64,000 nt of DNA, from contig CBDCAF010000016.1 of NCBI GenBank assembly GCA_965213675.1, forward strand, positions 8,871-72,870, given 5' to 3'. Origin of the DNA: an uncultured Candidatus Binatia bacterium (GTDB lineage Bacteria > Desulfobacterota > Binatia > UBA9968 > JAJDTQ01). The notes under the pieces were generated by a model, which worked only from the letters and a program-made list of their open reading frames with translations, was not told the DNA's origin and did no database searches. Shown in pieces: positions 10,280 to 27,109 of the stretch; positions within the stretch are counted from its first letter, which is position 1; every line of letters begins with the position of its first letter. The translations under genes and the position numbers were made by a program.

Positions 10280-11986
10280 CTAAGCCGCCGCGGCCGAGCT
10301 GGGCGCGTAGCCGGAGCCGCGCAGCACCTGGCCCGGCAGGTCGCCGCTCAGGCGGCCATCCTCGTAGATCACGCCGCCGTTGACGATGGTGTAGTGGATG
10401 CCGTCGGAACGCTGGATCAGGCGCTTGGTGCCGGCCGGGTAGTCCTCCGCCCATTCGGGCTCGTAGGCGCGCACCGTGTCGGGATCGAACAGGGTGAGGT
10501 CCGCGGCGTAGCCCGGCCGGATGAGTCCCCGGCCTTCCAGGCCGTAGACCGAGGCCACGTGGAAAGTGAGCTTGTGCACGGCCTCCTCCAGCGTCATCAG
10601 GCCACGCTCCCGCACCCACAGGCCCAGCAGCGTGGTGCCGTAGCCGAAGTCGGCGCCGTACATCACATGGGCTCCGGCGTCCGAGGTGCCCACCAGCACG
10701 TAGGGGCTGCGCAGGATCTCGCCCATGGCCTGCGCATCGCCGCCGGTGTTGGCGTTCTGAAAGGTGGTGAGCAGCCCCTCGTCCAGCGACAGGTCCAGGA
10801 ACGCATCCACGGGATCCTGATTGCGCATGGCCGCCATGTCCGCCACGCTCTTGCCCTCGTAGCGTTTGTTCTCTTCCTTGACGACCTTCTCCACCTGCAC
10901 GATGTCCCAGCGCCGGTGGAAGTTGGTCATGCGCGTGGTGTTCAGGTCCTCGCGCAGCTTCACGCGGGTGGCCGGATCGGCAAAGGCCTGCTGGCGCACC
11001 TCCACCGGCAGGAACATGATGTTCTTCCAGGTGGGAAACTCGTCGAAGAGCTGCGCGTTCTGCAGGTTGAAATGCCTTACCAGCGGCACGGTCTGGGTCA
11101 AGCCGTAGGCGCGGTAGCCGTCCTGGAAGATGCGCGACACCGCGTCCAGTTGCTCCTGCCACAGCGTGGGCTCGGCCCAGCGGTGATGCACGCTCTGCCA
11201 GATGATGGGCCGCTGGGTCCGGCTGGCCAGGTCGTGATAGATGTCGAAGTGCTCCAGCTTGTTGCGGCCGAGAATGGTCTCGATGATGCCGCTGTTCATC
11301 TCGCCGAGCACGTCGCACAGGGCGTAGAGTTCTTCGTTGTCCGCCAGCCGGCTGGCCACGGGCTTGCCGTCCTCGCGCATGTGGCGCTCGTTGCGGTTGG
11401 TGGAGAACCCCAGCGCGCCCGCGTCCATGGCGCCCCGCACGAGGCGCTTCATGGTCTGCACCTCGGCGGCGGTGGCCTTGCGTTCCACCGACTCCTCGCC
11501 CATGACGTTCTGGCGCACCGCGATGTGCCCCACCAGACCACCGGCGTTGATGCCGAGCCGGCCCTCCAGGGCATCCAGGTACTCGCCGTAGCTGTGCCAG
11601 CCCCAGGTCACGCCCTTCTCCAGGGCGGAACGCGGGATCGCCTCGACCCGCACGAAGCTCTTCACCAGGGCGTCCTCGCCGCCGTCGCTCACCGGCGCCA
11701 GCGCCAGCCCGCAGTTGCCCATGACGATGGAGGTGATGCCGTGCTGCGGCTCGGAGGTGCCGTAGGGGTCCCACAGGATCTGCGCGTCCATGTGGGTGTG
11801 GTGGTCGATGAACCCCGGCGACACCACCAGCCCGGCCGCATCGATGGTGCGGCTGGCCGAACCGTTGAGGCGCCCCACCGCTGCGATCTTGCCATCCTTC
11901 ACGCCCACGTCCGCCGTATGGGACGGCAGCCCCGAACCATCGGCCACGCGCCCGCCGCGTACCAGCAGATCATATTCCATGGACAA
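10280..11986 (-). CDS. Amidohydrolase, N-acyl-D-amino-acid deacylase (D-aminoacylase) family
   Basis: 568 aa. N-terminal YDLLVRGGRVADGSG...SPGFIDHHTHMD metal-binding motif typical of the family. Confidence 0.8.
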   Translation of the reverse strand: MSMEYDLLVRGGRVADGSGLPSHTADVGVKDGKIAAVGRLNGSASRTIDAAGLVVSPGFIDHHTHMDAQILWDPYGTSEPQHGITSIVMGNCGLALAPVSDGGEDALVKSFVRVEAIPRSALEKGVTWGWHSYGEYLDALEGRLGINAGGLVGHIAVRQNVMGEESVERKATAAEVQTMKRLVRGAMDAGALGFSTNRNERHMREDGKPVASRLADNEELYALCDVLGEMNSGIIETILGRNKLEHFDIYHDLASRTQRPIIWQSVHHRWAEPTLWQEQLDAVSRIFQDGYRAYGLTQTVPLVRHFNLQNAQLFDEFPTWKNIMFLPVEVRQQAFADPATRVKLREDLNTTRMTNFHRRWDIVQVEKVVKEENKRYEGKSVADMAAMRNQDPVDAFLDLSLDEGLLTTFQNANTGGDAQAMGEILRSPYVLVGTSDAGAHVMYGADFGYGTTLLGLWVRERGLMTLEEAVHKLTFHVASVYGLEGRGLIRPGYAADLTLFDPDTVRAYEPEWAEDYPAGTKRLIQRSDGIHYTIVNGGVIYEDGRLSGDLPGQVLRGSGYAPSSAAAA

Positions 11987-12132: not shown

Positions 12133-12294
12133 TCAGGCGACCATCGGCCACGGGATCTCCGCACCCGCCATCATCGGCCACGGGATCTCGGCGCCAGCAA
12201 CCTGCGGCCAAAGCACTTCGGAGCCGGAAAGGCTCCCGGCCAAGGCCACCACTCCCAAAGCGATAGCGAACAGCATCCATCGGGCTTCCTTCAT
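12133..12294 (-). CDS. 53-aa secreted peptide with three WP(M/Q) repeats (hypothetical)
   Basis: ATG 12294 lies 6 nt after a perfect GGAGG. Signal-like MKEARWMLFAIALGVVALAGSLSG, then EVLWPQVAGAE-IPWPMMAGAE-IPWPMVA, which is encoded by a tandem DNA repeat. Confidence 0.4.
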   Translation of the reverse strand: MKEARWMLFAIALGVVALAGSLSGSEVLWPQVAGAEIPWPMMAGAEIPWPMVA

Positions 12295-12396
12295 TGGGAC
12301 CCTCCTTTCTTCAGGAAACAACTCTACAACTGCCGGCCGTGACCGGCAAGCACGAGTTCGCTGCAACTCAGGATCTTGCGGAAACGGGACGAGAGC

Positions 12397-12436
12397 TTGA
12401 CAACAGTTTATAATATGATAAAGCTAAATCATTATC
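12397..12436 (+). promoter_or_regulatory. AT-rich promoter region with a Fur-family (Fur/Zur-like) box
   Basis: TTGACA at 12397-12402 and TATAAT at 12409-12414 (non-canonical spacing). GATAAAGCTAAATCATTATC at 12417-12436 resembles the Fur consensus GATAATGATAATCATTATC, and the 3' half AATCATTATC is identical. Confidence 0.4.
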
Positions 12437-12468
12437 GGCAATTCTACTCGAAAGGAACACACGCACCC

Positions 12469-13818
12469 ATGCGAATCCGCAACTGGAATCCCCTTGTCAT
12501 CCTGTTTGTTGCAGTAGCCCTGTTGCTTGCCGCGAACCCGGCCACAGCGGCTCCGGAACCGGGTCTGTCCTCTTCCGCCGCTGCGCCCACGGAGCGCTCC
12601 GTGACCGTCGCCAGCACCGCGGTTGCGGCGACCCAGGCCACCCCTGCCGCGAAGCGGACCCCCATCTCGGGCCGGCTGCTCGTGGGCGACGGCGAGAGCA
12701 GCAAGATGTCGGTCATCGACCTGAAGGCCGGCGGCGTGGAACAGGACGCCTTCGACATGGGCTCCCGGGCCGGGCGCATCTACCCCACCAAGAACGGGCG
12801 CTTCGCCGTCGCGGTGTCCAGCGATGCCAACAACGTGCATGTCTTCGACGGCGGCATCTACCTGGAAAAGCACGGTGACCACTACGACCTGGTGGCCGGG
12901 CCGCTCAAGCGCCTGGACCTGGACCTGAGCGGCGACCGCCCGGTGCACCTGTATGTCGCCGGCAAGTGGGCCGCCATCTATTACGACGGCTCCGGTGACG
13001 TCGTGCTACTCAACGAGCAAGAACTGGAAAAGAACGGCGCTCGGCACAAGCCGCCCAAGCTCAACGCCGGGGCCCACCACGGTGCGGCGGTGCCGCTGGC
13101 CCATGACCTGTTCGCGCTCAGCATCCAACACCCCGACTTTGCCGCCAACCCCAAGGACTACCGTCTGCCCATCGGCGCCAAGATCGTGGATCTGTCGGGC
13201 AAGGTGCTGCATAGCCAGGAAGGCTGCAAGGATCTGCACGGCGACGCAGGGAACGGCCATGTCGCGGCCTTCGGTTGCCGCGGCGGTATCCTGGTCGTGA
13301 AGGCGGACCACGGGAAGTACGAAGGGGCGTTCATCTCCGCGCCGGAAGGCGAACCCGAAGACTTTCGTTTGACCACGGTCTGGGGTTATCCCGGCATGGA
13401 CCGCTTCTTCGCTCTCGGCTCCGCGGTGGGCCTGTACGTCGTGGACCCCAAGGCAAGCGCCATGAAGCAGTTGATCCCCGCCTCGGACGCCATGAAACCC
13501 ATCAACGCCGCGGTGAGTCACGACGGCAAGGCGCTGCTGGTGGTGATGAGCGATGGCGAGCTACGCATGTACGATGCCCACAAGCTCGACCTGCTGGCGT
13601 CCGCGCGCGACTTCCTGACCACTCCGGTGGAGGCAGGTTTCTGGGCGCGCCCCCACGTCGTGACCATTCCCGGAGCCGTCTTCATCACCGACTCCGTGGG
13701 CGGCAAGGTTCTGCAACTGAACAGCCAGAACCTCAAGGTCGTCGAAAGCTGGAACGTCGCCGGCAAACCCACCAAGGTGGCCTTCGTCGGCGTCTCCACC
13801 AAGACCAAGGGCCACTAG
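12469..13818 (+). CDS. Secreted beta-propeller-like protein, possibly an AztD-like periplasmic metallochaperone
   Basis: Signal peptide MRIRNWNPLVILFVAVALLLAANPATAAPEP. HGDHYD motif and repeated strand-rich segments. The CDS is well supported; the function is tentative. Confidence 0.6.
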   Translation: MRIRNWNPLVILFVAVALLLAANPATAAPEPGLSSSAAAPTERSVTVASTAVAATQATPAAKRTPISGRLLVGDGESSKMSVIDLKAGGVEQDAFDMGSRAGRIYPTKNGRFAVAVSSDANNVHVFDGGIYLEKHGDHYDLVAGPLKRLDLDLSGDRPVHLYVAGKWAAIYYDGSGDVVLLNEQELEKNGARHKPPKLNAGAHHGAAVPLAHDLFALSIQHPDFAANPKDYRLPIGAKIVDLSGKVLHSQEGCKDLHGDAGNGHVAAFGCRGGILVVKADHGKYEGAFISAPEGEPEDFRLTTVWGYPGMDRFFALGSAVGLYVVDPKASAMKQLIPASDAMKPINAAVSHDGKALLVVMSDGELRMYDAHKLDLLASARDFLTTPVEAGFWARPHVVTIPGAVFITDSVGGKVLQLNSQNLKVVESWNVAGKPTKVAFVGVSTKTKGH

Positions 13819-14109
13819 ACTTCCAGCCCTCCCGAACAAACCTCCCGGACCCGGCGCGGCGCACTGTCTCCATTCGCTCGCACACCCGTGTGATGCCCGC
13901 GCCGGGTCCAGGCCCCGCCTGACTGTCCGCAAGCCGGGGCACATCAAGCCCCGATCTCCCCAAAACGCCGGTTCAGCTCCCTCTCCTCGGAAAACTCGGG
14001 TCCTTGCCTTCTCCTGGACGAACGGCGAAACTACAGCTTCGTGGCAGGGCAAGAGGGTTGTCAGCAAAATGTGTCCAAGGAAAGGAGATCCACTACTGGA
14101 GGTGCGATC

Positions 14110-14364
14110 ATGGCGCTGGAAATGGAAATGGCAAGATATCGGAAGCTTATGGCGGATCACGACCGCGTTCAGGAACACCATGGACAGTACACCTTGATTC
14201 AGAAGGAGGATGTCGTCGGCTTCTTCTCAAGTTTCGACGACGCTCTCCGGGAAGGCTATCGGCGATTCAAACCCGGGTCCTTTCTCGTAAAACAGGTCAG
14301 CGCCATCGACGAAGTACACTTCGTCTCCAGATTCGCTCCATGCCTTACTTCAGCCGTCGAATAG
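14110..14364 (+). CDS. Small DUF5678-like hypothetical protein (84 aa)
   Basis: ATG 14110 lies 8 nt after GGAGG. The HGQYTLIQKEDVVGFFSSFDDALREGYRRF pattern resembles DUF5678-type small proteins. It overlaps the next gene by 25 nt. Confidence 0.5.
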   Translation: MALEMEMARYRKLMADHDRVQEHHGQYTLIQKEDVVGFFSSFDDALREGYRRFKPGSFLVKQVSAIDEVHFVSRFAPCLTSAVE

Positions 14365-14783
14365 AGTCCGTCGGCCTTCTCCTGAACGTACGGTTGGGCG
14401 TGAGCGTTGGCTACCAGGAGGCCCTGGAAAGATCGCAGAGTCCTGTTCCTCAGCCACTGTCCGTACAGGGCATCGTCGATACAGGTGCCAGTTGCACCTG
14501 TATCGACCCCGGAATCGTCCAGCGGCTTGGTCTGATTCCGGTAGGGAAGCAGAGCATCAGCACACCATCGACGGGTCCGAACCCCATAGAGGTCGACCTC
14601 TATGACGTCAGCTTGGCCATCTTCTCGACAACGCAGGAAGTCCCGTGCTGGATTCCCAATCTGCCTGTCGCCGAATCGCAACTTGATCATCAAGGATTCC
14701 AGGTCCTCATAGGCCGGGATGTCTTATCTCGCTGCATGTTGCTCTACGACGGCAAGAACAGCGTCTATACGCTTTGCTTTTGA
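14340..14783 (+). CDS. Retropepsin-like (clan AA) aspartic protease, stand-alone 147 aa
   Basis: Catalytic IVDTGASCTCID and second signature VLIGRDVL. No signal peptide or TM segment. The size fits a homodimeric retropepsin fold. Confidence 0.7.
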   Translation: MPYFSRRIESVGLLLNVRLGVSVGYQEALERSQSPVPQPLSVQGIVDTGASCTCIDPGIVQRLGLIPVGKQSISTPSTGPNPIEVDLYDVSLAIFSTTQEVPCWIPNLPVAESQLDHQGFQVLIGRDVLSRCMLLYDGKNSVYTLCF

Positions 14784-14847
14784 AGGGTCGCCCTCGCGTC
14801 CAAGCCCGAGAACGTCTCTTTCCGAACTTGAGCGACGGTTGAAAATC

Positions 14848-17265
14848 ATGGACAAGCGGAGCCTCTCGGAACGAGACATCTGCACGAAGTTCATCACACC
14901 TGCCCTGCGTCGAGCCGGGTGGGATGAGATGCTTCAAATCCGCGAAGAGGTGAGCTTCACCAAGGGTCGCATCATCGTCCGCGGCAAGCTGGTGTCACGC
15001 GGGAAAGCCAAGCGCGCCGACTACGTTCTATATTACAAACCCAACCTTCCCCTTGCGGTCATCGAAGCCAAGGACAACTCCCACAGCGTCGGCGGCGGCA
15101 TACAGCAGGCGCTGGACTACGCCGAAACACTGAACGTTCCCTTCGTGTTCTCATCCAACGGCGACGGTTTCCTGTTTCACGACTGCACCGGCAACGCCAA
15201 CCCGCGAGAGACGCACCTCTCGCTGGACGATTTCCCGTCGCCTGACAAGCTGTGGACGCGCTACCGCGCCTGGAAGGCCCTGGGTCCGGAAGCCGAAGGC
15301 CTCGTCCTTCAGGACTACCATGAGGACGGCGGCGACAAGGCGCCTCGGTACTACCAAGTCATCGCAATAAACGCGGCCATTGAGGCCGCTGCCAAGGGGC
15401 TGGATCGCATCCTCTTGGTCATGGCCACCGGCACCGGCAAGACCTACACGGCGTTCCAGATCATCTGGCGCTTGTGGAAGGCCGGACACAGGAAGCGCAT
15501 CCTTTTCCTCGCCGACCGCAACGTGCTCGTCGATCAGACCATGGTGAACGATTTTCGGCCCTTCGGCAGAGCGATGACGAAGCTTTCTACTCAAGCGAAA
15601 ACCATATGGTGCGATGACCACGGCGTGCACCGAGTCGATACGTCCTACGAGATCTATCTGGGTCTTTATCAGGCAATCACCGGGCCGGACGAAAATCAGA
15701 AAATATATCGTGAGTTCTCTCCCGGATTCTTCGACCTGATTGTCATCGACGAATGCCACCGGGGCAGCGCCGACGAGGACTCGGCTTGGCGCGAGATTCT
15801 TGAGTACTTCTCTTCCGCCACCCAGATCGGACTCACCGCGACGCCGAAAGAGACGCGATACGCTTCCAATATCGCGTATTTCGGAGAGCCGGTGTTCTCC
15901 TACTCGTTGAAACAAGGCATCCACGACGGCTTTCTCGCGCCCTACAAGGTGGTCAAGGTTCATATCGACCGCGACGTCGAAGGCTACCGGCCGGAAAAGG
16001 GGAAGCTCGACCGGTATGGCGAGGAAGTCGACGACCACATCTACAACACCAAGGACTTTGACCACACGCTTGTCATCGACGGGCGCACCAACTTGGTGGC
16101 GCGGAAGGTTACGCAGTTCCTGAAGGAGAGCGGAGACCGATTCCAGAAGGCCATGATCTTTTGCGTCGATCAGGAACACGCGGCGCGCATGCGCCAAGGG
16201 CTGATCAACGAGAACGCCGACCTCATGGACGAGAACCCCCGGTACGTCATGCGTATCACCGGCAGCGATGCTGAGGGACAGGCCGAGTTGGGCAACTTCA
16301 TCGATCCGGAATCGAAACACCCCGTTCTTGTCACCACGTCCCGCCTGCTGTCCACGGGCGTGGACGTGCAGACATGTCGGCTCATCGTGCTCGACCGTGA
16401 AGTCGGCTCGATGACCGAATTCAAGCAGATCGTCGGCCGTGGCACCCGCGTGCACGAGGATACCGGCAAGCTTTACTTCACTCTGATCGACTTCCGCGGC
16501 GCGACCAGTCATTTCGCCGATCCGGAGTTCGATGACGAGCCGGTGCAGGTCTACGAGCCCGGGAAGGGCGAGCCCGTCGATCCGCCCGAAGCCACGTTGG
16601 TCCAGTACGATGATACGTTTTCCGAGTCTCCTAAAAACGACCGCGGTGGCACGACGGTCGTAGTTGATGCCAACTTTCCACCCATTGGAGACGGCTCGCG
16701 CAAGAAGATCTATGTCGACGACGTGAGCGCGACCATCGTCGCCGAACGGGTGGAGTATCTTGACGAGCACGGCGGCCTGGTCACCGAGTCGCTTCGCGAT
16801 TTTACCCGGAAGGCACTACGCAAGCGTTTCGCAAGCCTTGACGACTTCCTGAGGCGATGGAACGGTGCCGAGCGCAAACAGGCGATCATCGATGAGATGG
16901 CGGCCGGGGGGTTGCCACTGGCCGTCATCGCCGAGGAGTTGGGCAAGGACCTCGACCCCTTCGACCTCATCTGTCATGTTGCGTTCGATGCGAGACCGCT
17001 GACTCGCCGAGAGCGCGCTGACAACGTCAGGAAACGCGACGTGTTCAGGAAGTACGGAGAACAGGCCCGCACCGTGCTCGATGCGCTGCTCGACAAGTAC
17101 GCCGACGAAGGCGTGTTGGAACTCGACGACACCAACGTGCTCAGAATCCCGCCGATCAACACGCTTGGCACCCCGGTGGAATTGATCGGAGCCTTTGGCG
17201 ACAGGCCCGGGTACCTGCGCGCCGTCCACGACCTGCAGTCATCACTCTACAGGGAGACCGCATAG
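14848..17265 (+). CDS. hsdR: Type I restriction enzyme R subunit (EcoEI/type IB-like C-terminus)
   Basis: N-terminal nuclease motif (ADYVLY...VIEAKD), helicase motifs ATGTGKT and DECHRGS, and an EcoEI_R_C-like tail. Start at MDKRSL (ATG 14848). Confidence 0.92.
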   Translation: MDKRSLSERDICTKFITPALRRAGWDEMLQIREEVSFTKGRIIVRGKLVSRGKAKRADYVLYYKPNLPLAVIEAKDNSHSVGGGIQQALDYAETLNVPFVFSSNGDGFLFHDCTGNANPRETHLSLDDFPSPDKLWTRYRAWKALGPEAEGLVLQDYHEDGGDKAPRYYQVIAINAAIEAAAKGLDRILLVMATGTGKTYTAFQIIWRLWKAGHRKRILFLADRNVLVDQTMVNDFRPFGRAMTKLSTQAKTIWCDDHGVHRVDTSYEIYLGLYQAITGPDENQKIYREFSPGFFDLIVIDECHRGSADEDSAWREILEYFSSATQIGLTATPKETRYASNIAYFGEPVFSYSLKQGIHDGFLAPYKVVKVHIDRDVEGYRPEKGKLDRYGEEVDDHIYNTKDFDHTLVIDGRTNLVARKVTQFLKESGDRFQKAMIFCVDQEHAARMRQGLINENADLMDENPRYVMRITGSDAEGQAELGNFIDPESKHPVLVTTSRLLSTGVDVQTCRLIVLDREVGSMTEFKQIVGRGTRVHEDTGKLYFTLIDFRGATSHFADPEFDDEPVQVYEPGKGEPVDPPEATLVQYDDTFSESPKNDRGGTTVVVDANFPPIGDGSRKKIYVDDVSATIVAERVEYLDEHGGLVTESLRDFTRKALRKRFASLDDFLRRWNGAERKQAIIDEMAAGGLPLAVIAEELGKDLDPFDLICHVAFDARPLTRRERADNVRKRDVFRKYGEQARTVLDALLDKYADEGVLELDDTNVLRIPPINTLGTPVELIGAFGDRPGYLRAVHDLQSSLYRETA

Positions 17266-17268
17266 GAA

Positions 17269-18720
17269 ATGGCCGTCAGCACTCTTGTCAAGACGATTCA
17301 GGACATCATGCGTCAGGACGTGGGTGTCGATGGCGATGCGCAACGCATCAGCCAGTTATGTTGGATGTTCTTCCTCAAGATCATCGACGATCAGGACCGG
17401 GAGCTTGAATTACTGAAGGAATGCTACCGTTCACCTGTTCCCGACCGGGTGCGATGGCGCAACTGGGCCGCCGATCCGGAAGGGATCACCGGGGACGAGT
17501 TGGCGACCTTCATCAACGCGAACCTCTTTCCGGCACTGAAGGAGCTTCCGGCAGGGAACGACCCGCGCGCAAGGGTTGTAAGGGATGTCTTCGAGGACGC
17601 TTTCAACTACATGAAATCCGGCCAGTTGATCCGGCAGGTGGTCAACAAGATCAACGACATCGACTTCAACAATTTCGCCGAGCGTCAGCACTTCGGCGAC
17701 ATCTACGAGCAAATCCTCAACGACCTGCAATCCGCGGGCAATGCCGGGGAGTACTACACCCCGCGCGCGGTCACATCTTTCATGGTGGAGATGGTCGACC
17801 CCAAACCGGGCGAGACGCTGTTCGACCCCGCCTGCGGTACTGGCGGCTTCCTCACTTGCGCCATCCGCCACATGCGCGACCGCTACATCAAGCGACCGGA
17901 AGACGAGGCGCGGATGCATGCATCCCTTCGCGCTATGGAGAAGAAACCGCTGCCGCACATGCTCGCCGTCACCAACATGCTTCTGCACCACATCGAGGAG
18001 CCCTCTTTCCTGCGTCACGACAACACCCTGGCGCGACCCTACGTCTCCTGGGGCCAAGCCCAGCGCGTGGATATCGTGCTGACCAATCCGCCGTTCGGCG
18101 GCAAGGAGGAACCGGGCATCGAGTCCAACTTCCCAACACACTTCCAGACCCGCGAAACGGCCGATCTGTTTCTCGCGCTGATCATCCGCCTTCTCAAGCC
18201 CGGCGGACGGGCCGCGGTGGTGCTGCCCGATGGCTCGCTCTTCGGCGAAGGCGTCAAGACCCGGCTCAAGGAGCATCTGATGGAAGAGTGCAACCTTCAC
18301 ACCATCGTCCGCCTGCCGAACTCGGTGTTCCGCCCCTACGCTTCCATCGGTACAAACCTGTTGTTTTTCGAAAAGGGCGGACCTACGAGGAATGTCTGGT
18401 TCTGGGAGCACCGCGTCCCCGAAGGACAAAAGCACTACTCGATGACCCGGCCCATCCGGCTGGAGCATCTGGCCGACTGTGCCGCGTGGTGGGGCGGAGC
18501 GAAACGCAAGGGCCGCAAGGAAGGCGGCCGTGCATGGAAGGTCACAGCCAAGGAGGTGAATGAGCGCGGCTACAATCTCGACATCAAGAATCCTCAAACC
18601 GAGGGCCCAGACTACGAAGATCCCGAGACACTTCTCGCAGAACTGGAATCCGCAGAGGCCGATGTGACATCGATACGAAACCAGTTGAAGGAAGCCTTGG
18701 CGGAGGCGTTGCTACGATGA
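17269..18720 (+). CDS. hsdM: Type I R-M N6-adenine DNA methyltransferase subunit
   Basis: HsdM N-terminal domain, SAM motif DPACGTGGFL and catalytic NPPFGG. Confidence 0.95.
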   Translation: MAVSTLVKTIQDIMRQDVGVDGDAQRISQLCWMFFLKIIDDQDRELELLKECYRSPVPDRVRWRNWAADPEGITGDELATFINANLFPALKELPAGNDPRARVVRDVFEDAFNYMKSGQLIRQVVNKINDIDFNNFAERQHFGDIYEQILNDLQSAGNAGEYYTPRAVTSFMVEMVDPKPGETLFDPACGTGGFLTCAIRHMRDRYIKRPEDEARMHASLRAMEKKPLPHMLAVTNMLLHHIEEPSFLRHDNTLARPYVSWGQAQRVDIVLTNPPFGGKEEPGIESNFPTHFQTRETADLFLALIIRLLKPGGRAAVVLPDGSLFGEGVKTRLKEHLMEECNLHTIVRLPNSVFRPYASIGTNLLFFEKGGPTRNVWFWEHRVPEGQKHYSMTRPIRLEHLADCAAWWGGAKRKGRKEGGRAWKVTAKEVNERGYNLDIKNPQTEGPDYEDPETLLAELESAEADVTSIRNQLKEALAEALLR

Positions 18721-18765
18721 AATCAAAGAAGGACCACCATCGCCTTCAGCCTGGAAAAGTTGGTC

Positions 18766-19077
18766 ATGCACGCCGCCATCGCTGACAAGAAGGAAAAGTT
18801 GGCGGAACTCTGCCGTCGCCACGGGGTAGCGCGCCTCGAAGTCTTCGGATCCGCCGCGCGCGGCGCTTACTTCGATCTACAGACCAGCGACGTCGACTTC
18901 CTTGTGGAGTTCAACCCCGACGGAGACCTGCGGCCCTTCCACCAATTCTTCGACCTCGCCGACGCCTTGCGCCACACCTTGGGCCGCTCCGTCGATCTCG
19001 TCGAGTCGGGCATCGTCCGCAACCCGTATCTGCGCGCCGCCATAGACCGGTCGCGCGAGGTTGTCTATGAGTCCTGA
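18766..19077 (+). CDS. Nucleotidyltransferase (MNT) antitoxin of a HEPN/MNT module
   Basis: GSAARG...DVDFLV minimal nucleotidyltransferase motifs. Confidence 0.85.
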   Translation: MHAAIADKKEKLAELCRRHGVARLEVFGSAARGAYFDLQTSDVDFLVEFNPDGDLRPFHQFFDLADALRHTLGRSVDLVESGIVRNPYLRAAIDRSREVVYES

Positions 19078-19423
19078 CCGTCGCGTTCTGCTGACGGACA
19101 TCGACCAGGCGGGCGCGGAAATCCAACGCTTCACGCACGGTCTGGACAGCGTTTCCTACGCCGGCGACGCGCTGACTCAAGCCGCGGTCGAACGGAAGTT
19201 CGAGATCATTGGCGAAGCGTTAAACCGCCTTCACAGGGCCCGCCCAGACATCGCCGGTCAGATTCCCTGGTACCGCCGGATGATCGACTTCCGCAACTTG
19301 TTGATCCACGGCTACGCCAGCGTGCTGCCCGAGCGCGTCTGGGACTATACCGACAACCACCTTCCCGACCTGCGTCGGATCGTGCTGGAGATGCTCGCCG
19401 AGTTGGGACCGCCGATGCCATGA
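19067..19423 (+). CDS. HEPN domain (DUF86) toxin
   Basis: RNLLIHGY (Rx4H) HEPN RNase motif. Overlaps the MNT gene by 11 nt and hsdS by ATGA. Confidence 0.85.
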   Translation: MSPDRRVLLTDIDQAGAEIQRFTHGLDSVSYAGDALTQAAVERKFEIIGEALNRLHRARPDIAGQIPWYRRMIDFRNLLIHGYASVLPERVWDYTDNHLPDLRRIVLEMLAELGPPMP

Positions 19424-21153
19424 ACGCCGAACGCTTGCTAGCCCTGTATGATCGGGTGGCGGAAGCGCCCGACGCCATTCCCCGCCTGCGTCGTTTCGTG
19501 CTCGACCTCGCTGTGCGAGGAAGACTGTTGGCGCAGGATCTGGCGGATGAACCGGCAGCGGAGTTGCTCAAGAGAATAGCGGAGGAAAAAGCACGACTGA
19601 GAGTTCGGCACCATGTCAAACCGCTCGCCGCGCAGGAAATCCCGTTTGTTCTTCCTGCGGGTTGGCTTTGGAACCGGCTCGGGGAGCTTTGCACCAAAAC
19701 CGGTTCTGGTAGTACCCCACGCGGTGGCAAAAGCGTATACAAGGACAATGGAATTCTGTTTCTTCGTTCTCAAAATGTGTATGACGACTGCCTGCGACTC
19801 GACGAAGTAGCCCGAATTGAACCTGGCGTTCACGCTCGTATGGCGGGGACCGCTGTCCAACCGAGAGACCTTCTCCTGAACATAACTGGTGGTTCCATGG
19901 GTCGGTGCTGTCGCGTACCTGACGAGTTTGGGAAGGCCAACCTTAACCAGCACGTCGCCATAATCCGCCCAGCAGTTCTCGAAATGGCCGACTTTCTTCA
20001 TAAACTCGTGCTGTCACCCTACTTCCAGTCCTTCATCGTCGATGAACAGACCGGCGCGGGACGCGGTGGCCTCCCGAAGAACAAAATGGATCGGATAGCT
20101 GTCGCGGTCCCACCCCTCGCCGAACAGCATCGCATCGTCGCCAAGGTCGATGAACTCATGACCCTCTGCGACGAATTGGAAGAAGCCCGTGCCACACGCG
20201 CGGAGACCCGCGACCGGCTGACCAAATCTAGTCTTGGCCGCTTGAGTGCACCTGAAGCGGATGATGAGACTCTTCGCTCCCACGCTCGTTTCGCCATCGA
20301 TGCCTTCCCCGCACATACAGCGCGTATCAACCAAATCAAACACCTTCGCCAAGTCATCTTCGACCTCGCCGTGCGAGGCAAACTAGTAGAGCAGGATCCG
20401 GCGGACGAACCGGCGGCGGAGTTGCTGGAACGGATAGCGGTGGAGAAGGCGAGACTGGTGAAGGCGTGCACGACTGGAATGCCGAAAGCTTCGGTACAGG
20501 CTGACTGCGATGATTTGCCGTTTTTTCTTCCCAGAGGTTGGACTTGGACGCAGATCGCAGAACTTGGCTTGATTAGTCCGCGCAATGATTTTGCCGACGA
20601 TCATGTGGCGTCCTTCGTTCCGATGCCTTTGATTCCGCGAGATTGGCGTGCTTCCAATACTCATCAGACTCGCCCGTGGGGCGAGATAAAGAGGGGTTAC
20701 ACTCATTTCGCTGACGGAGACGTTGCGCTGGCGAAGATCACGCCATGCTTTGAGAATGGCAAGTCCGTCGTTTTCCGCGATCTGACAGGTGGCGTCGGGA
20801 GCGGCACGACCGAGCTTCATGTTGTCCGCCCCATCTGTATGGACGCGGACTACATCCTGCTGTTTCTAAAGACCCCATTTTTCATTGAGACTGGCGTCAC
20901 GAGAATGACTGGTACAGCGGGCCAAAAACGCGTGCCAAGAGATCACTTCGCAAACTCACCGTTTCCCCTCCCACCCCTAGCCGAACAGCATCGCATCGTC
21001 GCCAAGGTCGATGAACTCATGACCCTCTGCGACCGTCTGGATACACGTCTTGCTGCAACAGCCTCCGCTCACCAGCGCCTCCTCGAATCTCTGCTTCGGG
21101 AATCACTGGCGCCCACCGCAAATTTACTTGAGGCACTTGAGGAAGCCAAATAA
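19420..21153 (+). CDS. hsdS: Type I R-M specificity subunit
   Basis: Two target-recognition domains, each followed by the identical conserved helix PPLAEQHRIVAKVDELMTLCD. Duplicated N-terminal/central helical regions. Confidence 0.9.
   Translation: MNAERLLALYDRVAEAPDAIPRLRRFVLDLAVRGRLLAQDLADEPAAELLKRIAEEKARLRVRHHVKPLAAQEIPFVLPAGWLWNRLGELCTKTGSGSTPRGGKSVYKDNGILFLRSQNVYDDCLRLDEVARIEPGVHARMAGTAVQPRDLLLNITGGSMGRCCRVPDEFGKANLNQHVAIIRPAVLEMADFLHKLVLSPYFQSFIVDEQTGAGRGGLPKNKMDRIAVAVPPLAEQHRIVAKVDELMTLCDELEEARATRAETRDRLTKSSLGRLSAPEADDETLRSHARFAIDAFPAHTARINQIKHLRQVIFDLAVRGKLVEQDPADEPAAELLERIAVEKARLVKACTTGMPKASVQADCDDLPFFLPRGWTWTQIAELGLISPRNDFADDHVASFVPMPLIPRDWRASNTHQTRPWGEIKRGYTHFADGDVALAKITPCFENGKSVVFRDLTGGVGSGTTELHVVRPICMDADYILLFLKTPFFIETGVTRMTGTAGQKRVPRDHFANSPFPLPPLAEQHRIVAKVDELMTLCDRLDTRLAATASAHQRLLESLLRESLAPTANLLEALEEAK
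20109..20172 (+). repeat. hsdS internal direct repeat, copy 1
   Basis: 64 nt, identical to 20970-21033 except for one mismatch. The last 54 nt are perfect. Confidence 0.95.
20970..21033 (+). repeat. hsdS internal direct repeat, copy 2
   Basis: See copy 1. Encodes the second PPLAEQHRIVAKVDELMTLCD helix. Confidence 0.95.
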
Positions 21154-21460
21154 GCCGTTGCTTCAGATCCTCAACGAGGTGGGTACGTTAACATGCCTCT
21201 GTCGGGTTGACGGCGATGGACGGACGTTCGGTGACCCCCCAAAGGGAACGAGGCATCCGGTACGCGTCGAGGACACGCATGCCACAGAGACTGGAGAGAC
21301 TCCCAAGGGAAGTGTAGCGGACAACTGTAAATGTCCCATTTGTGTCAATCGAAAATGTCCCACATAGAAGATTGCGAGGAGGTGTACGTCGGGCCAGTCT
21401 GTTGGCAAAAGCCAACAGGAATGGCGCGGCGAACCGATGCACGGATGGGAGACAAGGATG

Positions 21461-22642
21461 TTAGGGAAGATCTAAACAAGAGACCTTTCACATGTCATTA
21501 TGGCGAAAACGGCAGGGCATGGAGGGGGAACGATGAGACAGGCGAGCTTCGCGGAGCTGGAACATGATGGGAAGAAGCGTCGGACGCGGCGGGAGGAGTT
21601 TTTGGAGAAGATGGAGGGGCTGATACCGTGGAGGCGTCTGGAGAAGCGGATAGAGGCATTTTAGCCGAAGGCGGGACGTGGACGGCGGCCGGACCCGTTG
21701 GGGGTGATGCTGCGGGTGCACTGTGTGCAGTTGTTCTACAACCTGAGCGACCCTGGGATGGAAGACCTTTTATACGAGGTGGAGTCGGTGCGGCGCTTTG
21801 TGGGGCTGCGGCTTTCGGGACCATTGCCGGACGAGACAACGATCCTGAATTTTCGTCACCTGCTGGAGGAGCACGGACTGGGGGAGAAGCTGTTCGAGGA
21901 GATCAACGCGCACTTGGCCTCGTTGGGGCGGCGGTTGAAGACGGGGACGATCGTGGACGCGAGCATCATCGCGGCGCCGTCATCGACGAAGAACCTCAAG
22001 GGGGAGCGGGACCCTGAGATGCACCAGACGAAGAAGGGGAAGCAGTGGTACTTCGGGATGAAGGCGCATATCGGAGTGGACGCGGAGTCGGGGTTGACAC
22101 ACAGCCTGGAGACGACGCCGGCCAACGTGTCGGACGTGGCGACGGCGCACGCGCTACGGCACGGGGACGAGGAGCAGGTGTGGGGACACGGGCTACCAGG
22201 GGGTGGGCAAGCGTGAGGAGAACCGGGACGCGCAGGTGGACTGGCAGGTGGCGATGAAGCCGGGCCAGCGCCGGAAGCTGGAGAAGATCGGACCGGAAGA
22301 AGCGGCGGAGAAGCGCAAGGCGTCGGTGCGGGCCAAGGTGGAGCATCCCTTTCTGTACGTGAAGCGCCACTTCGGCTACGCCAAGGTGCGCTACCGCGGG
22401 CTGTGGAAGAACACCCAGCGCATCGCCGTACTGCTCGGGTTCACCAATCTGCTCATCGCAGGGCGCTACGCTTGAGGTCCTGAGGCGGGACCGGTCCGCC
22501 CGCTGCGGCAAGGGAGGGCGAAATACCTGCGGTTTGGTCATAAAACGAGGCCCCGGAACCCTTATCCCCGGTCCCGGGGGTTGAACTGTTCGGACGTTTT
22601 CCCCGCGCCCACCAAAATCGAGGTTGTTAAGACTTTCCCTAA
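21461..22642 (+). mobile_element. Decayed IS5-family insertion sequence (about 1.18 kb)
   Basis: Imperfect terminal inverted repeats: TTAGGGAAGATCTAAACAAG (21461-21480) against the reverse complement of 22623-22642, TTAGGGAAAGTCTTAACAAC (16/20). They enclose an IS5-type DDE transposase reading frame. Confidence 0.7.
21533..22475 (+). pseudogene. IS5-family transposase pseudogene
   Basis: In-frame TAG at 21662-21664, where homologues have Tyr (..[13 protein letters not shown]..). A +1 frameshift near 22170-22190 lies just before GDTGYQGV. The C-terminal AKVEHPF...KVRYRGL is typical of IS5. Confidence 0.8.
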
Positions 22643-22667
22643 AGCAGTGGAAAGCCGTGCATAATCG

Positions 22668-22757
22668 GCGTTCCCCGCACACGCGGGGATGAACCGCGGA
22701 AACCGTGTCGCTGAATGAGCCCCGTCCCGTGATCGCCGAACACTCAGGGTGACCCGC
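22668..22757 (+). CRISPR. Vestigial type I-E-like CRISPR: one intact repeat, one 32-nt spacer, one degenerate repeat
   Basis: GCGTTCCCCGCACACGCGGGGATGAACCG (22668-22696) matches the E. coli I-E repeat GAGTTCCCCGCGCCAGCGGGGATAAACCG at 24/29, with the stem conserved. Exactly 32 nt later, 22729-22757 matches the first repeat at 16/29. No cas genes in the window. Confidence 0.55.
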
Positions 22758-22956
22758 CGAAAATGCTGTTAGACACTGATGCCGTTGACAGACACTGTTT
22801 ATTGAGGCGGTCCTGGATGGCAGACGCGGATCGATCAAGCGCTTCAGGAATGGGTCGCGACACATCGCCGCGCGTGATCCTCTGGATCGGCCACCCACTT
22901 CAGCCGGACTCGCCTGCCCGTTTCCGGCGCCATAGACACCAGGCACAGGAGCAATC

Positions 22957-25173
22957 ATGGATCTCAAGGTCGTAGGGCAACCGGTAGGGCGCGTAGAGGG
23001 TCCGGACAAGGTTTCCGGGCGGATGGTGTACACGGCGGACGTGGACGTGCCGGAAGCGCTGTGGGGCAAGTGCTTGCGCAGCACGCTGGCGCATGCACGG
23101 CTAGTGCGGGTGGACGCATCGCGGGCGCGGCAGGTGCCGGGGGTGCGGGCGGTGCTGACGGGGGCGGACGTGCCGGATTTCCGCGTGGGCGTGAGCCTGC
23201 AGGATCTGCCGGTGCTGGCGCGGGACAAAGTACGCTTCATCGGCGACAAGATCGCGGCGGTGGCCGCGGACACCCTCGACGCGGCGGAGGAAGCGCTGGG
23301 GCTCATCAAGGTGGAATACGAAGAGTTGCCCGCGGCGGCGGACATTGAGGAGGCTCTCGCCGACGGGGCTCCGGTGATCCACGAGGAGCTGGCGGACTAT
23401 GCGGGCGTTCCCGGCCGGCCGGAAGAACGGCCCAACGCGCTTTCTCTCAAAGAGCACACAGCCGGCGATGCGGCGCGGGGGATGGCGGAGGCGGAGGTGG
23501 TCGTGGAGCACACCTTTCGCACGCCGGGGGTGCACCAGGTCTACCTGGAGCCCCACGCCACGGTGGTGTCGGCGGCGGACGACGGGCGCATCGACGTATG
23601 GGCGTCGTGCAAGGCGCCGTTCCGGCTCAAGCAGATGCTGGCGGCGCAACTGGCGTTGGAAGAGGCGAACATCCACGTGCATGGCGTGGCCCTGGGTGGA
23701 GACTTCGGCGGCAAGGGCTCCCAGATGGACGTGCCGGTCTGTTACTACCTCGCCAAGGCCGCGGGGCGCCCGGTGAGGATGGTGATGAACTACACCGAGG
23801 AGTTGATGGCCGGCGACCCGCGCCACGGCTCGGTGATGCGCGTCAAGCTCGGGGCGAAGCGCGACGGCGCCCTGGTGGCCCTGGACAGCGACATCGACTT
23901 CGACAGCGGCGCCTACTCGGGCTTCAAGCCCTCGGAAATCGACGGCACGTTCATCGTCAATGCCTACCGTATCCCCCACTACGCCATCCGCACGCGCAAC
24001 GTCTACACCAACAGCGTGCCCGGCGGCTACATGAAGTCGCCGGGGCAGCCTCAGACCGTGTTCGCCATCGAGTCGCTGCTGGACATGCTGGCGCGGAAAC
24101 TCGACATGGACCCGGTGGCGCTCCGGCTGAAGAACCTGATGCAGGACGGCGACACGTTGCCCAACAAGCGCGGCATGCAGAAGATCCGCTGCCGCGAAAC
24201 CATCGAGGCCGCGCTCGAGGCGGCGGGCTGGAACGACGTTCCCGCCAGCCCGGACACCGGCCGGGGCATGGCCCTCTCCTTTCGCCACACCGGCGGCAGC
24301 GGCACCGTGAACCTGGAGCTGACCTGCGACGCCAGCGGCGGGGTCACGGTGCTCACCGCCATCCCCGACATCGGCACCGGCACGCATACCTTGCTGCGCC
24401 AGATCACCGCGGAGATGCTGACCTTGCCGGCGGACCGGGTGCAGGTGGCGCGCGGCGACACCGATACCTTTGACACCGATGCCGAACCCGGCGGCAGCAA
24501 GATCACCGCCATGGTGGGGCGCGGCCTGGTGGAAGCGGTGGAGGAGCTGCGCCACCGGATGACGGAGGCCGCCGCCCAGGCCCTCGGCTGCCGGCCCGAG
24601 GCGGTGACCCTGGCGGACGGCCGCTTCAGCGCCAGCGGCGCGGCCCTGGCCTTCGCCGACGTGGCCGGAAAACTCATCGCCGAAGACAAGGCGCTGTCGG
24701 TGCACAAGTCCTACCGGCCCGAGCGCTCGCCCGTGCCGGCGTTCTTCGTGCAAGTGGCAGAGGTCGCGGTGGACCGGGAGACCGGCGTCGTGGACGTGAA
24801 GAAAGTGGTGACCGCCCACGACGTCGGCACGATCATCAACCCCCTGGGCCACCAGGGACAGATCGACGGCGGCTTCGTGCAGGGGCTGGGCTACGCGGTC
24901 ATGGAGGAGATGGTCAAGGACGGGCCGCGGGTCACCACCCTCAACCTCGGCGACTACTGCGTGCCGTGCGTGAAGGACCTGCCGCAGCTCGAGACCGTGC
25001 TGGTGGAGGACCAGACCGGCCCCGGTCCCTACAACGCCAAGGCCATTGGGGAAATGAGCATCGTGCCCACGGCCCCGGCCATCGCCAACGCGGTGGAGGC
25101 CGCGGTGGGGATACGCATTCTCGATCTGCCCATCACGGCGGAGAAGGTGTTCAACGCGTTGCGGGACAGGTGA
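22957..25173 (+). CDS. Xanthine dehydrogenase/aldehyde oxidase family molybdopterin-binding large subunit (CoxL-like)
   Basis: 738 aa. The N-terminus VGQPVGRVEGPDKVSGRMVYTADV is typical of the family, with a/b-hammerhead and MoCo-binding domains throughout. Confidence 0.85.
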   Translation: MDLKVVGQPVGRVEGPDKVSGRMVYTADVDVPEALWGKCLRSTLAHARLVRVDASRARQVPGVRAVLTGADVPDFRVGVSLQDLPVLARDKVRFIGDKIAAVAADTLDAAEEALGLIKVEYEELPAAADIEEALADGAPVIHEELADYAGVPGRPEERPNALSLKEHTAGDAARGMAEAEVVVEHTFRTPGVHQVYLEPHATVVSAADDGRIDVWASCKAPFRLKQMLAAQLALEEANIHVHGVALGGDFGGKGSQMDVPVCYYLAKAAGRPVRMVMNYTEELMAGDPRHGSVMRVKLGAKRDGALVALDSDIDFDSGAYSGFKPSEIDGTFIVNAYRIPHYAIRTRNVYTNSVPGGYMKSPGQPQTVFAIESLLDMLARKLDMDPVALRLKNLMQDGDTLPNKRGMQKIRCRETIEAALEAAGWNDVPASPDTGRGMALSFRHTGGSGTVNLELTCDASGGVTVLTAIPDIGTGTHTLLRQITAEMLTLPADRVQVARGDTDTFDTDAEPGGSKITAMVGRGLVEAVEELRHRMTEAAAQALGCRPEAVTLADGRFSASGAALAFADVAGKLIAEDKALSVHKSYRPERSPVPAFFVQVAEVAVDRETGVVDVKKVVTAHDVGTIINPLGHQGQIDGGFVQGLGYAVMEEMVKDGPRVTTLNLGDYCVPCVKDLPQLETVLVEDQTGPGPYNAKAIGEMSIVPTAPAIANAVEAAVGIRILDLPITAEKVFNALRDR

Positions 25174-26097: not shown

Positions 26098-26949
26098 ATG
26101 ATCCACGTTGTCGGAATCGTCGCGAAGTACGGAGAGGAGAAGGCCGAGACGATCATGCGCGGGACCATACCGTGGCTGGAGGGCCGCGGCATGGAGGTGC
26201 TCGTCGAGGCGGAGTACGGCGCCGTGGGCGGAAACGTCGCGCGCAAGGGGGAGATGGCCGAACGCGCCGACCTGATCGTCGTCCTGGGCGGAGATGGCAC
26301 GCTCCTGAGCATTGCCCGGCTGGTGGAACGGCCCGAGGTGCCCGTGGTGGGCGTGAACCTCGGGGGCCTCGGCTTCATTACCGAAATCGCGCTGGACGAA
26401 CTCGAAGAAGTCCTCACGAGCACCATCGCTGAGAACTACACCATCGAGAAACGCATGACCTTGCAGGTCAGCATCGAAGGCCAGGACGGCGTCCAGCACC
26501 TCCGTATCCTCAACGACGCGGTCATCACCAAGGGCGCCCGTTCCAAGATCATCAATCTGGAAACCTACGTCGGCAGCGATTACCTGTGCACCTACCGGGC
26601 CGACGGACTCATCATCTCCACGCCCACGGGATCGACGGCGTATTCGCTGGCCGCGGGAGGCCCGATTCTTCATCCGGCCATGAGCGCCATCATCCTCTGT
26701 CCCATCTGCCCGCACACGCTGACCACCAACCGGCCCATCGTCATCGCCAGCGACGCGCGCATCCGATCCACCCTGAGATCGTCCGGAGACACCGTCATCC
26801 TGATCCCCGACGGTCAGGAGGGAATCCTGTTGAACAACGGCGACCGCGTAGAGGTGCGCCGGCACAAGTCGCCGGTGTCGCTCGTGCGTATTCCCACGCG
26901 GTCGTATTTCGACGTACTCCGCAACAAACTCAAGTGGGGAGAGCGCTAG
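26098..26949 (+). CDS. nadK: NAD(+) kinase
   Basis: GGDGTLL motif and the NadK C-terminal domain (STPTGSTAYSLAAGGPI). The stop codon TAG lies inside the CTAG that bounds the adjacent MITE. Confidence 0.9.
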   Translation: MIHVVGIVAKYGEEKAETIMRGTIPWLEGRGMEVLVEAEYGAVGGNVARKGEMAERADLIVVLGGDGTLLSIARLVERPEVPVVGVNLGGLGFITEIALDELEEVLTSTIAENYTIEKRMTLQVSIEGQDGVQHLRILNDAVITKGARSKIINLETYVGSDYLCTYRADGLIISTPTGSTAYSLAAGGPILHPAMSAIILCPICPHTLTTNRPIVIASDARIRSTLRSSGDTVILIPDGQEGILLNNGDRVEVRRHKSPVSLVRIPTRSYFDVLRNKLKWGER

Positions 26950-27109
26950 TGTGGTGTCTGGTTAATTCGCGTCATAATCTGCGGAGGATTTTTTGTTGTC
27001 GGCAAGGCGCGATGACGAGCAGTGGCGGGTACCACGCGAGGAAGAGCAACGCAGCCGACGGCGAATAAGACCCGCAGATTATGCGCGAATTAACCAGACA
27101 CCACACTAG
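26946..27109. mobile_element. 164-bp MITE with 38/39-bp terminal inverted repeats, bounded by CTAG
   Basis: CTAGTGTGGTGTCTGGTTAATTCGCGTCATAATCTGCGG (26946-26984) against the inverted copy at 27072-27109 (one 1-nt indel). No coding capacity. Confidence 0.8.

Follow-up and report, generated by a model that had tools for sequence, protein, structure and literature searches.

A strictly paired DUF5678-superfamily protein and stand-alone retropepsin form a mobile two-gene cassette: a candidate toxin-antitoxin-like module

Introduction

What might a cell do with a soluble relative of the retroviral proteases whose gene overlaps that of a small acidic protein? The question is raised by a locus of an uncultured Candidatus Binatia bacterium. 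The window analysed here is the whole stretch of 64,000 nucleotides (nt) from positions 8,871 to 72,870 on the forward strand of contig CBDCAF010000016.1 (GenBank assembly GCA_965213675.1), and the two open reading frames (ORFs) in question lie at 14110-14783 of it on the + strand, ORF1 preceding ORF2 and their ends sharing 25 nt. A preliminary description of the window had proposed that they constitute an undescribed toxin-antitoxin (TA) or defence module at the head of a defence island. Stand-alone bacterial retropepsins are almost unstudied; we found no characterised TA or defence system with an aspartic protease as its effector, and we know of no described toxin that uses this fold. Here we report that the two genes form a strict and mobile pair across more than 10 phyla, weigh the functions that such a pair may have, and tentatively favour a TA-like one.

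The gene pair

The features of the pair, in window coordinates, are the following.

14098-14102, + strand: Shine-Dalgarno sequence GGAGG, read off the sequence, with a 7-nt spacer to the ATG of ORF1
14110-14364 (ATG to TAG), + strand: ORF1, the small partner gene, encoding 84 amino acids (aa), acidic, DUF5678 superfamily (translation)
14340-14783 (ATG to TGA), + strand: ORF2, predicted soluble retropepsin-like aspartic protease of 147 aa (Pfam PF13650, AlphaFold2 (AF2) model, Foldseek)
14340-14364, + strand: overlap of ORF1 and ORF2, 25 nt, protease in the -1 frame, probable translational coupling (junction census of 78 loci)
14326-14340, + strand: C-terminal tail motif of the small protein, S73-R74-F75-A76-P77 (family consensus [ST]-R-[FL]-[VI]-x-P)
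14478-14492, + strand: catalytic motif D47-T48-G49-A50-S51 (invariant in protease alignment A2)
14562-14576, + strand: T75-P76-S77-T78-G79, putative flap (near-invariant columns in A2)
14712-14720, + strand: G125-R126-D127, second retropepsin signature (invariant or near-invariant in A2)
14070-14781, + strand: extent of the mobile cassette (DNA common to the window and the closest intact relative, L128, by blastn)

The coordinates of the 84-aa and 147-aa ORFs and of their 25-nt overlap agree with the preliminary description, as does the presence of GGAGG ahead of ORF1, its spacer being 7 nt rather than the 8 nt given there. Because both frames are uninterrupted in homologues of 38-65% identity from many phyla, both ORFs are, on this comparative evidence, real genes and not chance ORFs.

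A strict pair in more than 10 phyla

The pair recurs in thousands of environmental bacteria, and the pairing is strict in both directions. When genome loci were anchored on the protease, 77 of 80, or 77 of the 79 assessable ones, drawn from more than 10 phyla, had the partner gene directly upstream; the three exceptions have an insertion sequence (IS) between the genes (L021), a contig end (L081) or no partner (L089). These loci come mainly from Acidobacteriota, and the pair is further found in Binatia, Proteobacteria, Verrucomicrobiota, Planctomycetota, Nitrospirota, Gemmatimonadota, Bacteroidota, Armatimonadota, Spirochaetota and the candidate phyla radiation (CPR). Anchoring on the partner gave the protease directly downstream at 77 of the 79 assessable metagenome loci. 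The conservation of the two genes as neighbours, on which the earlier proposal hinged, is thereby borne out. The pair is also kept at 33 of 34 loci in IMG/VR, including ones whose proteases are merely 26-33% identical to that of the window, and it is carried by the plasmid pNYY1_5 of the cultured Methylobacterium radiotolerans. For pairs of loci, the identity of the small proteins correlates with that of the proteases (r = 0.51).

At the junctions of 78 loci the genes either overlap, by 25, 19, 13 or 1 nt, or are 0-16 nt apart, and nearly all loci keep a start codon ahead of the protease N-terminus PHFT. This pattern indicates translational coupling and not frameshifting. We considered a programmed -1 frameshift, yielding a Gag-Pro-like fusion, as the normal mode of expression and rejected it: the overlap lacks a slippery heptamer and the start codon is conserved. 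A rare exception is one Planctomycetota genome (L050, 9776-10441), in which the small protein and the protease occur naturally fused in frame as a single chain of 221 aa. The exact sequence of the window protease is missing from a collection of 15 billion proteins in which the small protein is present, and the intact protease gene of L128 (426-866) had been left uncalled. Gene callers seem to overlook this overlapping gene or to misplace its start, and the protease family is for this reason probably under-annotated.

The breadth and integrity of the pair bear directly on the notion that it is a phage or retroelement relic, or a pair of spurious ORFs. This notion could draw on the fold, which is common to the retroviral proteases, and on the 34 IMG/VR contigs with family members. 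Against it, neither a PHROG match nor a match in 50,697 GenBank phage records was obtained, no reverse transcriptase or integrase recurs nearby, and both ORFs are intact and conserved across more than 10 phyla with their catalytic residues preserved. The conservation data largely refute it, and we regard it as scarcely tenable.

ORF2 is a retropepsin by fold and catalytic residues

By its catalytic residues and predicted fold, ORF2 is a genuine clan-AA retropepsin. Its product scores 26.9 bits against Pfam Asp_protease_2 (PF13650), passing the gathering cut-off of 24.3, and 15.9 bits against NCBIfam TIGR03698 (clan_AA_DTGF), failing the cut-off of 57.35. Among the profile checks suggested in advance, the window proteins therefore pass PF13650, and reach neither TIGR03698 nor DUF5678. 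Both of the retropepsin signatures initially noticed are present, IVDTGASCTCID at residues 45-56 and VLIGRDVL at residues 122-129. In the A2 alignment D47-T48-G49-A50 and G125-R126 are invariant and TPSTG, which may form the flap, is near-invariant; among 125 non-redundant family members DTGA is found in 122 and GRD in 121.

None of these 125 proteins has a transmembrane-like segment, and the family-wide maximum of the 19-residue Kyte-Doolittle score has a median of 1.34. The AF2 model of the monomer, computed with 40 homologues, is a single compact globular domain with a predicted local distance difference test (pLDDT) score of 96.2. Both results accord with the initial view that ORF2 lacks a transmembrane segment. 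A Foldseek search of the PDB with this model returned as top matches APRc of Rickettsia (5c9f), the proteases of feline immunodeficiency virus (FIV) and Rous sarcoma virus (RSV) and the RVP domain of Ddi1, each with a probability of 1.00 and a template-modelling (TM) score of about 0.6. At the sequence level, the family profile recovered the protease of human T-cell leukaemia virus 1 (HTLV-1) from the PDB with E = 7e-4, and direct BLASTP of the protease against that of human immunodeficiency virus 1 (HIV-1) was not significant.

Both termini of the protease are conserved, as M-P-H/Y-F-T at the N-terminus and T/S-L-A-F/Y at the C-terminus. In the retroviral proteases the terminal strands build the sheet that holds the homodimer together, the termini of the HIV protease being PQIT... 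and ...TLNF. By this analogy, the PHFT and TLAF terminal strands are consistent with a homodimer.

ORF1 is a divergent DUF5678-superfamily protein

The small protein of the window has no match in Pfam, NCBIfam or PADLOC, and PF18929 (DUF5678) in particular was not hit at E up to 10. With a profile built from it and its syntenic homologues, the family amounts to 3,971 clusters at 90% identity and at least 2,626 at 50% identity, with nearly all members being 75-130 aa long. Several proteins have two tandem copies of the domain (P0239, P0278, P0311 and P0321). PF18929 is matched by 5 of 10 members of the family and by 14 of 85 in a diverse set, and hhalign of the family with a DUF5678 protein above the cut-off (L114) gave a probability of 96.2% and E = 2.5e-9; this L114 protein itself lies directly upstream of a remote retropepsin. 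The AF2 model of the small protein, of moderate confidence (pLDDT 70.7), has a helix-helix-strand-strand-helix-strand order followed by a low-confidence tail from about residue 63. In a Foldseek search of BFVD its best matches include DUF5678 proteins of Pandoravirus at a TM score of about 0.6 (S5WA56, A0A2U7UG46 and A0A2U7UD66), and neither Foldseek nor sequence-profile searches found anything significant in the PDB. Weak matches to GYF and elongin-B (E above 2) were disregarded.

The small protein is thus homologous to DUF5678 at the superfamily level, as a divergent branch of it. The label "DUF5678-like" first given to it holds for the family and not as a match of the window protein itself. 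What the branch has beyond Pfam DUF5678 is an N-terminal helix (ALEKELxTY) and the C-terminal tail motif. The pairing with a retropepsin, among the strictest to be met between two genes and spread over at least 2,600 clusters from more than 10 phyla, puts DUF5678 into a concrete functional setting.

At the 59 loci where the tail motif lies clear of the protease gene, its Arg is kept in 59 and its Pro in 44; the motif being kept there, the constraint must act on the small protein itself. This conservation independent of gene overlap is also what one would see if the two proteins were a maturation pair, with the retropepsin processing its neighbour, for example by clipping the tail near R-x-x-x-P, and the processed small protein being the functional product, neither partner being toxic. 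The order of a hydrophobic residue and then Pro is reminiscent of the sites that retropepsins cleave, the L050 fusion puts the tail directly before the protease N-terminus as in a retroviral polyprotein junction, and the pairing is strict both ways. Yet the residues past the conserved Pro are few (3-8 aa) and poorly conserved, so that there is no obvious released peptide; within the small protein, conservation is highest in the folded core; and orphan small genes stay intact where the protease is absent. Maturation of this kind is in our judgement unlikely.

An autonomous cassette that moves and is lost

At its various loci the pair is free of fixed company. Neighbouring genes point in random directions and are separated from it by a median of 196 nt upstream and 128 nt downstream, and all-against-all clustering of 1,315 neighbouring ORFs revealed no third recurrent gene within 10 kb on either side, the best family being present at 8 of 80 loci. 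The GC content of the cassette is lower than that of its flanks at 47 of 47 loci, by a median of 8.7 points. Its distribution is patchy, with 348 or more of 185,579 species genomes having it. The closest intact relative, L128, whose protease is 85% identical to that of the window, shares 80% identity with the window by blastn over 14070-14781 only; the flanks are unrelated, with genes for Tad and the type II secretion system in L128 vs hsdR in the window. Nothing convincing in the way of flanking repeats, attC sites or a miniature inverted-repeat transposable element (MITE) was found around the cassette. Vertical inheritance is seen as well: L042 and L043, and likewise L055 and L056, are related genomes with identical junctions and the cassette at the same site. 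The cassette is, in sum, an autonomous, horizontally mobile two-gene operon of low GC content that varies between strains.

The surroundings of the pair in the window are made up of the following features.

14848-21153, + strand: type I restriction-modification (R-M) operon, context only (Pfam matches; not conserved beside the cassette at other loci)
14848-17265, 17269-18720 and 19420-21153, + strand: hsdR, hsdM and hsdS, respectively (Pfam matches)
18760-19077 and 19061-19423, + strand: embedded MNT and HepT genes, respectively (Pfam matches)
14385-18748, no strand: segment missing in the sister strain L210, comprising most of the protease gene, hsdR and hsdM (blastn and alignment)

Loss of the cassette can be followed in the sister strain L210, where flanks 97-99% identical to those of the window enclose a junction that joins window position 14384 to 18749. 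The small gene of L210 carries a frameshift. Of the protease gene about 15 codons are left, followed directly by a sequence resembling the start of the MNT gene, and hsdR and hsdM are gone with the rest of it. This comparison marks the site as a hotspot that varies between strains. The cassette can be dispensed with, and with the protease gone its partner gene falls into decay. Partner genes can also stay intact as orphans, as in L127, L172 and L177. The orphan small gene of L127 (1451-1729) is 84% identical to that of the window, with the protease deleted exactly at its start codon, and has a defence-like neighbourhood of AAA_15/AAA_21 ATPases, GmrSD_N, ParD and a Peptidase_M78 protein.

The variable site lies between a 480-aa gene (12376-13818) and a MoCoBD gene (22957-25173), window 14385-22807 corresponding to 4533-6710 of L210. 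The replacement in L210 displaces the protease, the type I R-M genes, HepT and an IS, and holds BrnT/BrnA, an RNase_H_2-like gene and a chimeric ORF that begins like MNT and ends like BrnT. The product of the 480-aa gene, conserved in the sister strain, has an N-terminal hydrophobic segment and no Pfam match. A repeat of about 165 nt, found at 26946-27109 downstream of the NAD kinase gene, recurs in L210 at 4707-4871, inverted, and at 10848-11013; the inverted copy lies inside the variable region and is 96% identical. It may be an element resembling a MITE or a repetitive extragenic palindromic (REP) sequence and be involved in rearrangements.

Within the window, the pair heads a low-GC block of about 14-22 kb which also carries hsdR, hsdM, MNT/HepT, hsdS and IS fragments. 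The AT-richer segment with HEPN/MNT and IS of the preliminary description is therefore real (GC 0.550 for the pair vs 0.649 for the window), and its CRISPR relic is not, as no CRISPR-like repeats are present at 12-27 kb. The sole tandem array in that range is a 30-nt repeat of 2.4 copies at 12140-12210, 5' of the 480-aa gene, which is not CRISPR-like, and there are no Rfam matches at 13.5-23.5 kb. The MNT (NTP_transf_2)/HepT TA pair (18760-19423) sits between hsdM and hsdS, an "embedded defence" arrangement of the kind described earlier (Payne et al. 2024, bioRxiv 10.1101/2024.01.29.577857). A perfect 14-nt inverted repeat with a 5-nt spacer at 14475-14507, over the VDTGASCTCID codons, was considered and set aside as particular to the window: across 134 homologues the complementarity centres on 7-9 of 14, and the palindrome is a coincidence of codon choice in the window.

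Neighbourhoods and defence catalogues

If the pair belonged to defence islands in general, its neighbours should betray it. We pooled 150 nearest-neighbour proteins from about 70 genome loci; they show no enrichment in defence or TA genes, as judged without a distance-matched control set. They match 163 Pfam families, none with more than 4 proteins, the commonest being IS1 transposase (4), elongation factor EF-G (3) and metabolic enzymes. In PADLOC, at E up to 1e-10, the number of proteins matched per family did not exceed 2. Across genome loci the neighbours are mostly housekeeping genes. A general association with defence islands is not supported, and the adjacency to hsdR is peculiar to the variable hotspot of the window strain.

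Searches of the literature (DUF5678, PF13650, COG5550, retropepsin with TA or defence, aspartyl protease with anti-phage) returned no description of the pair, which is a two-gene module with a putative effector fold absent from the characterised systems that we could find. Among computational predictions there is PDC-M08 (FAM_03167>>FAM_00414), a "phage defence candidate" from 381 RefSeq genomes defined by embedding in bacteriophage exclusion (BREX), defence island system associated with R-M (DISARM) or type I R-M loci (Payne et al. 2024, bioRxiv 10.1101/2024.01.29.577857). Of 40 protease family members, 28 weakly match the PDC-M08B models, with a best E of 5.7e-5; the window protease does so at E = 0.061 over 28 residues around DTGAS, and the window small protein matches none of the PADLOC models, PDC-M08A included, at E up to 10. 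PDC-M08B is, to judge from these profile matches, a remote sister family of the protease. Since PADLOC lists it, the retropepsin fold is not wholly missing from defence catalogues, which qualifies the original remark that no described defence system is known to use this fold; the remark stands for the searchable literature.

PDC-M08 also provides one of the arguments for the view that the cassette is an accessory of the adjacent type I R-M system, co-transcribed with hsdR and regulating or backing up restriction, as in proteolytic restriction alleviation or a PrrC-like fail-safe: this remote relative was picked up as embedded in BREX, DISARM or type I R-M loci. Furthermore, hsdR starts with the ATG at 14848 on the same strand, 64 nt 3' of the protease gene as first described, with only a weak terminator-like hairpin in between, and L210 lost the protease jointly with hsdR and hsdM. 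Against these stand the wider comparisons: at about 70 other genome loci R-M genes do not recur beside the cassette, the closest intact relative adjoins Tad and type II secretion genes, and homology with it stops before hsdR. An R-M accessory thus strikes us as very improbable.

The same neighbourhoods would suit a non-toxic form of accessory proteolysis, with the small protein as an adaptor or specificity factor (compare ClpS and the shuttle domains of Ddi1) in a niche-specific housekeeping role. Mainly housekeeping neighbours, the lack of defence or TA enrichment, vertical inheritance at the same site in the two genome pairs above, and an acidic partner without a DNA-binding domain all speak for it. 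It sits poorly with the patchy distribution, with a GC content that is always under that of the flanks and transfer confined to the cassette itself, and with a presence that varies by strain and ends in decay in the sister strain; in addition, no substrate gene is conserved nearby. We therefore consider an adaptor role rather improbable, too.

A protease restrained by its partner

The reading that we favour, if only tentatively and at somewhat less than an even chance, is that the cassette is a TA-like module in which the partner would restrain a cytoplasmic homodimeric protease. The small protein would be a dedicated restraint, either an antitoxin-like inhibitor or a "prosegment in trans". 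With its gene translated first, its amount would at least match that of the protease. Two ways of blocking the latter can be envisaged: the tail of the small protein could occupy the substrate cleft, or the small protein could insert itself into the terminal beta-sheet and so prevent dimer formation. Were the partner lost, degraded or titrated through cassette loss, stress or infection, the protease dimer would be freed and might cleave cellular or invader proteins; the outcome would be growth arrest, in the sense of addiction or abortive infection.

In several traits the cassette resembles TA systems: the small gene comes first, translation is coupled, the tail is disordered, the cassette is mobile and of low GC content, and orphan partners occur. 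Like type II TA systems, it is a compact coupled operon of two genes inherited and moved as a unit. The TA or defence module first proposed hence survives as a strict two-gene unit with TA-like architecture, shorn of its general link to defence islands.

Several observations weigh against this interpretation. The DNA-binding antitoxin and autoregulatory operator typical of type II systems are lacking here: Pfam and NCBIfam reveal no DNA-binding domain in the small protein, and its family is acidic with a median pI of 5.5; neither consensus scans nor a search for inverted repeats on the + strand 5' of ORF1 yielded a promoter or operator; and the DNA 5' of ORF1 is not conserved even among the closest relatives. 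The two proteins evolve at similar rates, unlike antitoxins, which usually evolve faster than their toxins. L089 has an intact orphan protease, and the excess of orphan partners over orphan proteases, 4 vs 1, is small and partly due to sampling bias. To these is added the lack of defence or TA enrichment among the neighbours reported above.

More broadly, it is conceivable, though on balance doubtful, that DUF5678-retropepsin cassettes constitute a widespread and unrecognised class of protease-based TA or abortive-infection systems, in which a DUF5678-fold inhibitor acts through a pseudo-substrate tail or a block of dimerisation. Such cassettes might be a prokaryotic pool from which the proteases of retroelements were drawn. 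If the pair is indeed an inhibitor with a toxic protease, it would represent a new toxin fold, provide a natural protein inhibitor of retropepsins and offer a prokaryotic model for the regulation of retroviral-type proteases. The M. radiotolerans plasmid supplies a cultured example for this hypothesis.

Comparison with known systems

PDC-M08 is the nearest entry in the defence catalogues. Both it and the present family are two-gene cassettes and purely computational candidates with weakly matching proteases. They differ in that PDC-M08 is defence-embedded by definition, whereas the window family is not defence-associated, and in that the small protein is not matched by PDC-M08A.

Type II TA systems such as ParDE and MNT/HepT share with the cassette a small first gene coupled to an enzyme gene and a disordered C-terminal tail, as well as mobility, low GC content, a patchy and strain-variable distribution and the persistence of orphan first genes. 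In contrast to them, the putative toxin here is an aspartic protease, and the partner is without a ribbon-helix-helix (RHH), helix-turn-helix (HTH), AbrB or Phd DNA-binding domain, with no operator having been found.

With the retropepsins (those of HIV, FIV and HTLV-1, APRc and the RVP domain of Ddi1) the window protease has in common the fold and the DTGA and GRD/N signatures, and its PHFT.../...TLAF termini resemble the PQIT.../...TLNF of HIV protease. It is set apart by being a stand-alone, soluble, bacterial enzyme with no polyprotein, by about 20 extra N-terminal residues including a helix, and by its dedicated partner gene. APRc is membrane-anchored and Ddi1 is fused to ubiquitin-like (UBL) and ubiquitin-associated (UBA) domains; neither is the case for the window protease.

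Finally, in staphopain/staphostatin, SpeB/Spi and the pepsinogen-type prosegments, a co-expressed protein or segment keeps a harmful protease inactive in the cell that produces it. The proteases of these systems differ from it in fold and catalytic class and are secreted virulence or digestive enzymes, whereas the window protease has no signal peptide. The likeness is one of analogy only, in which the L050 fusion would correspond to the zymogen.

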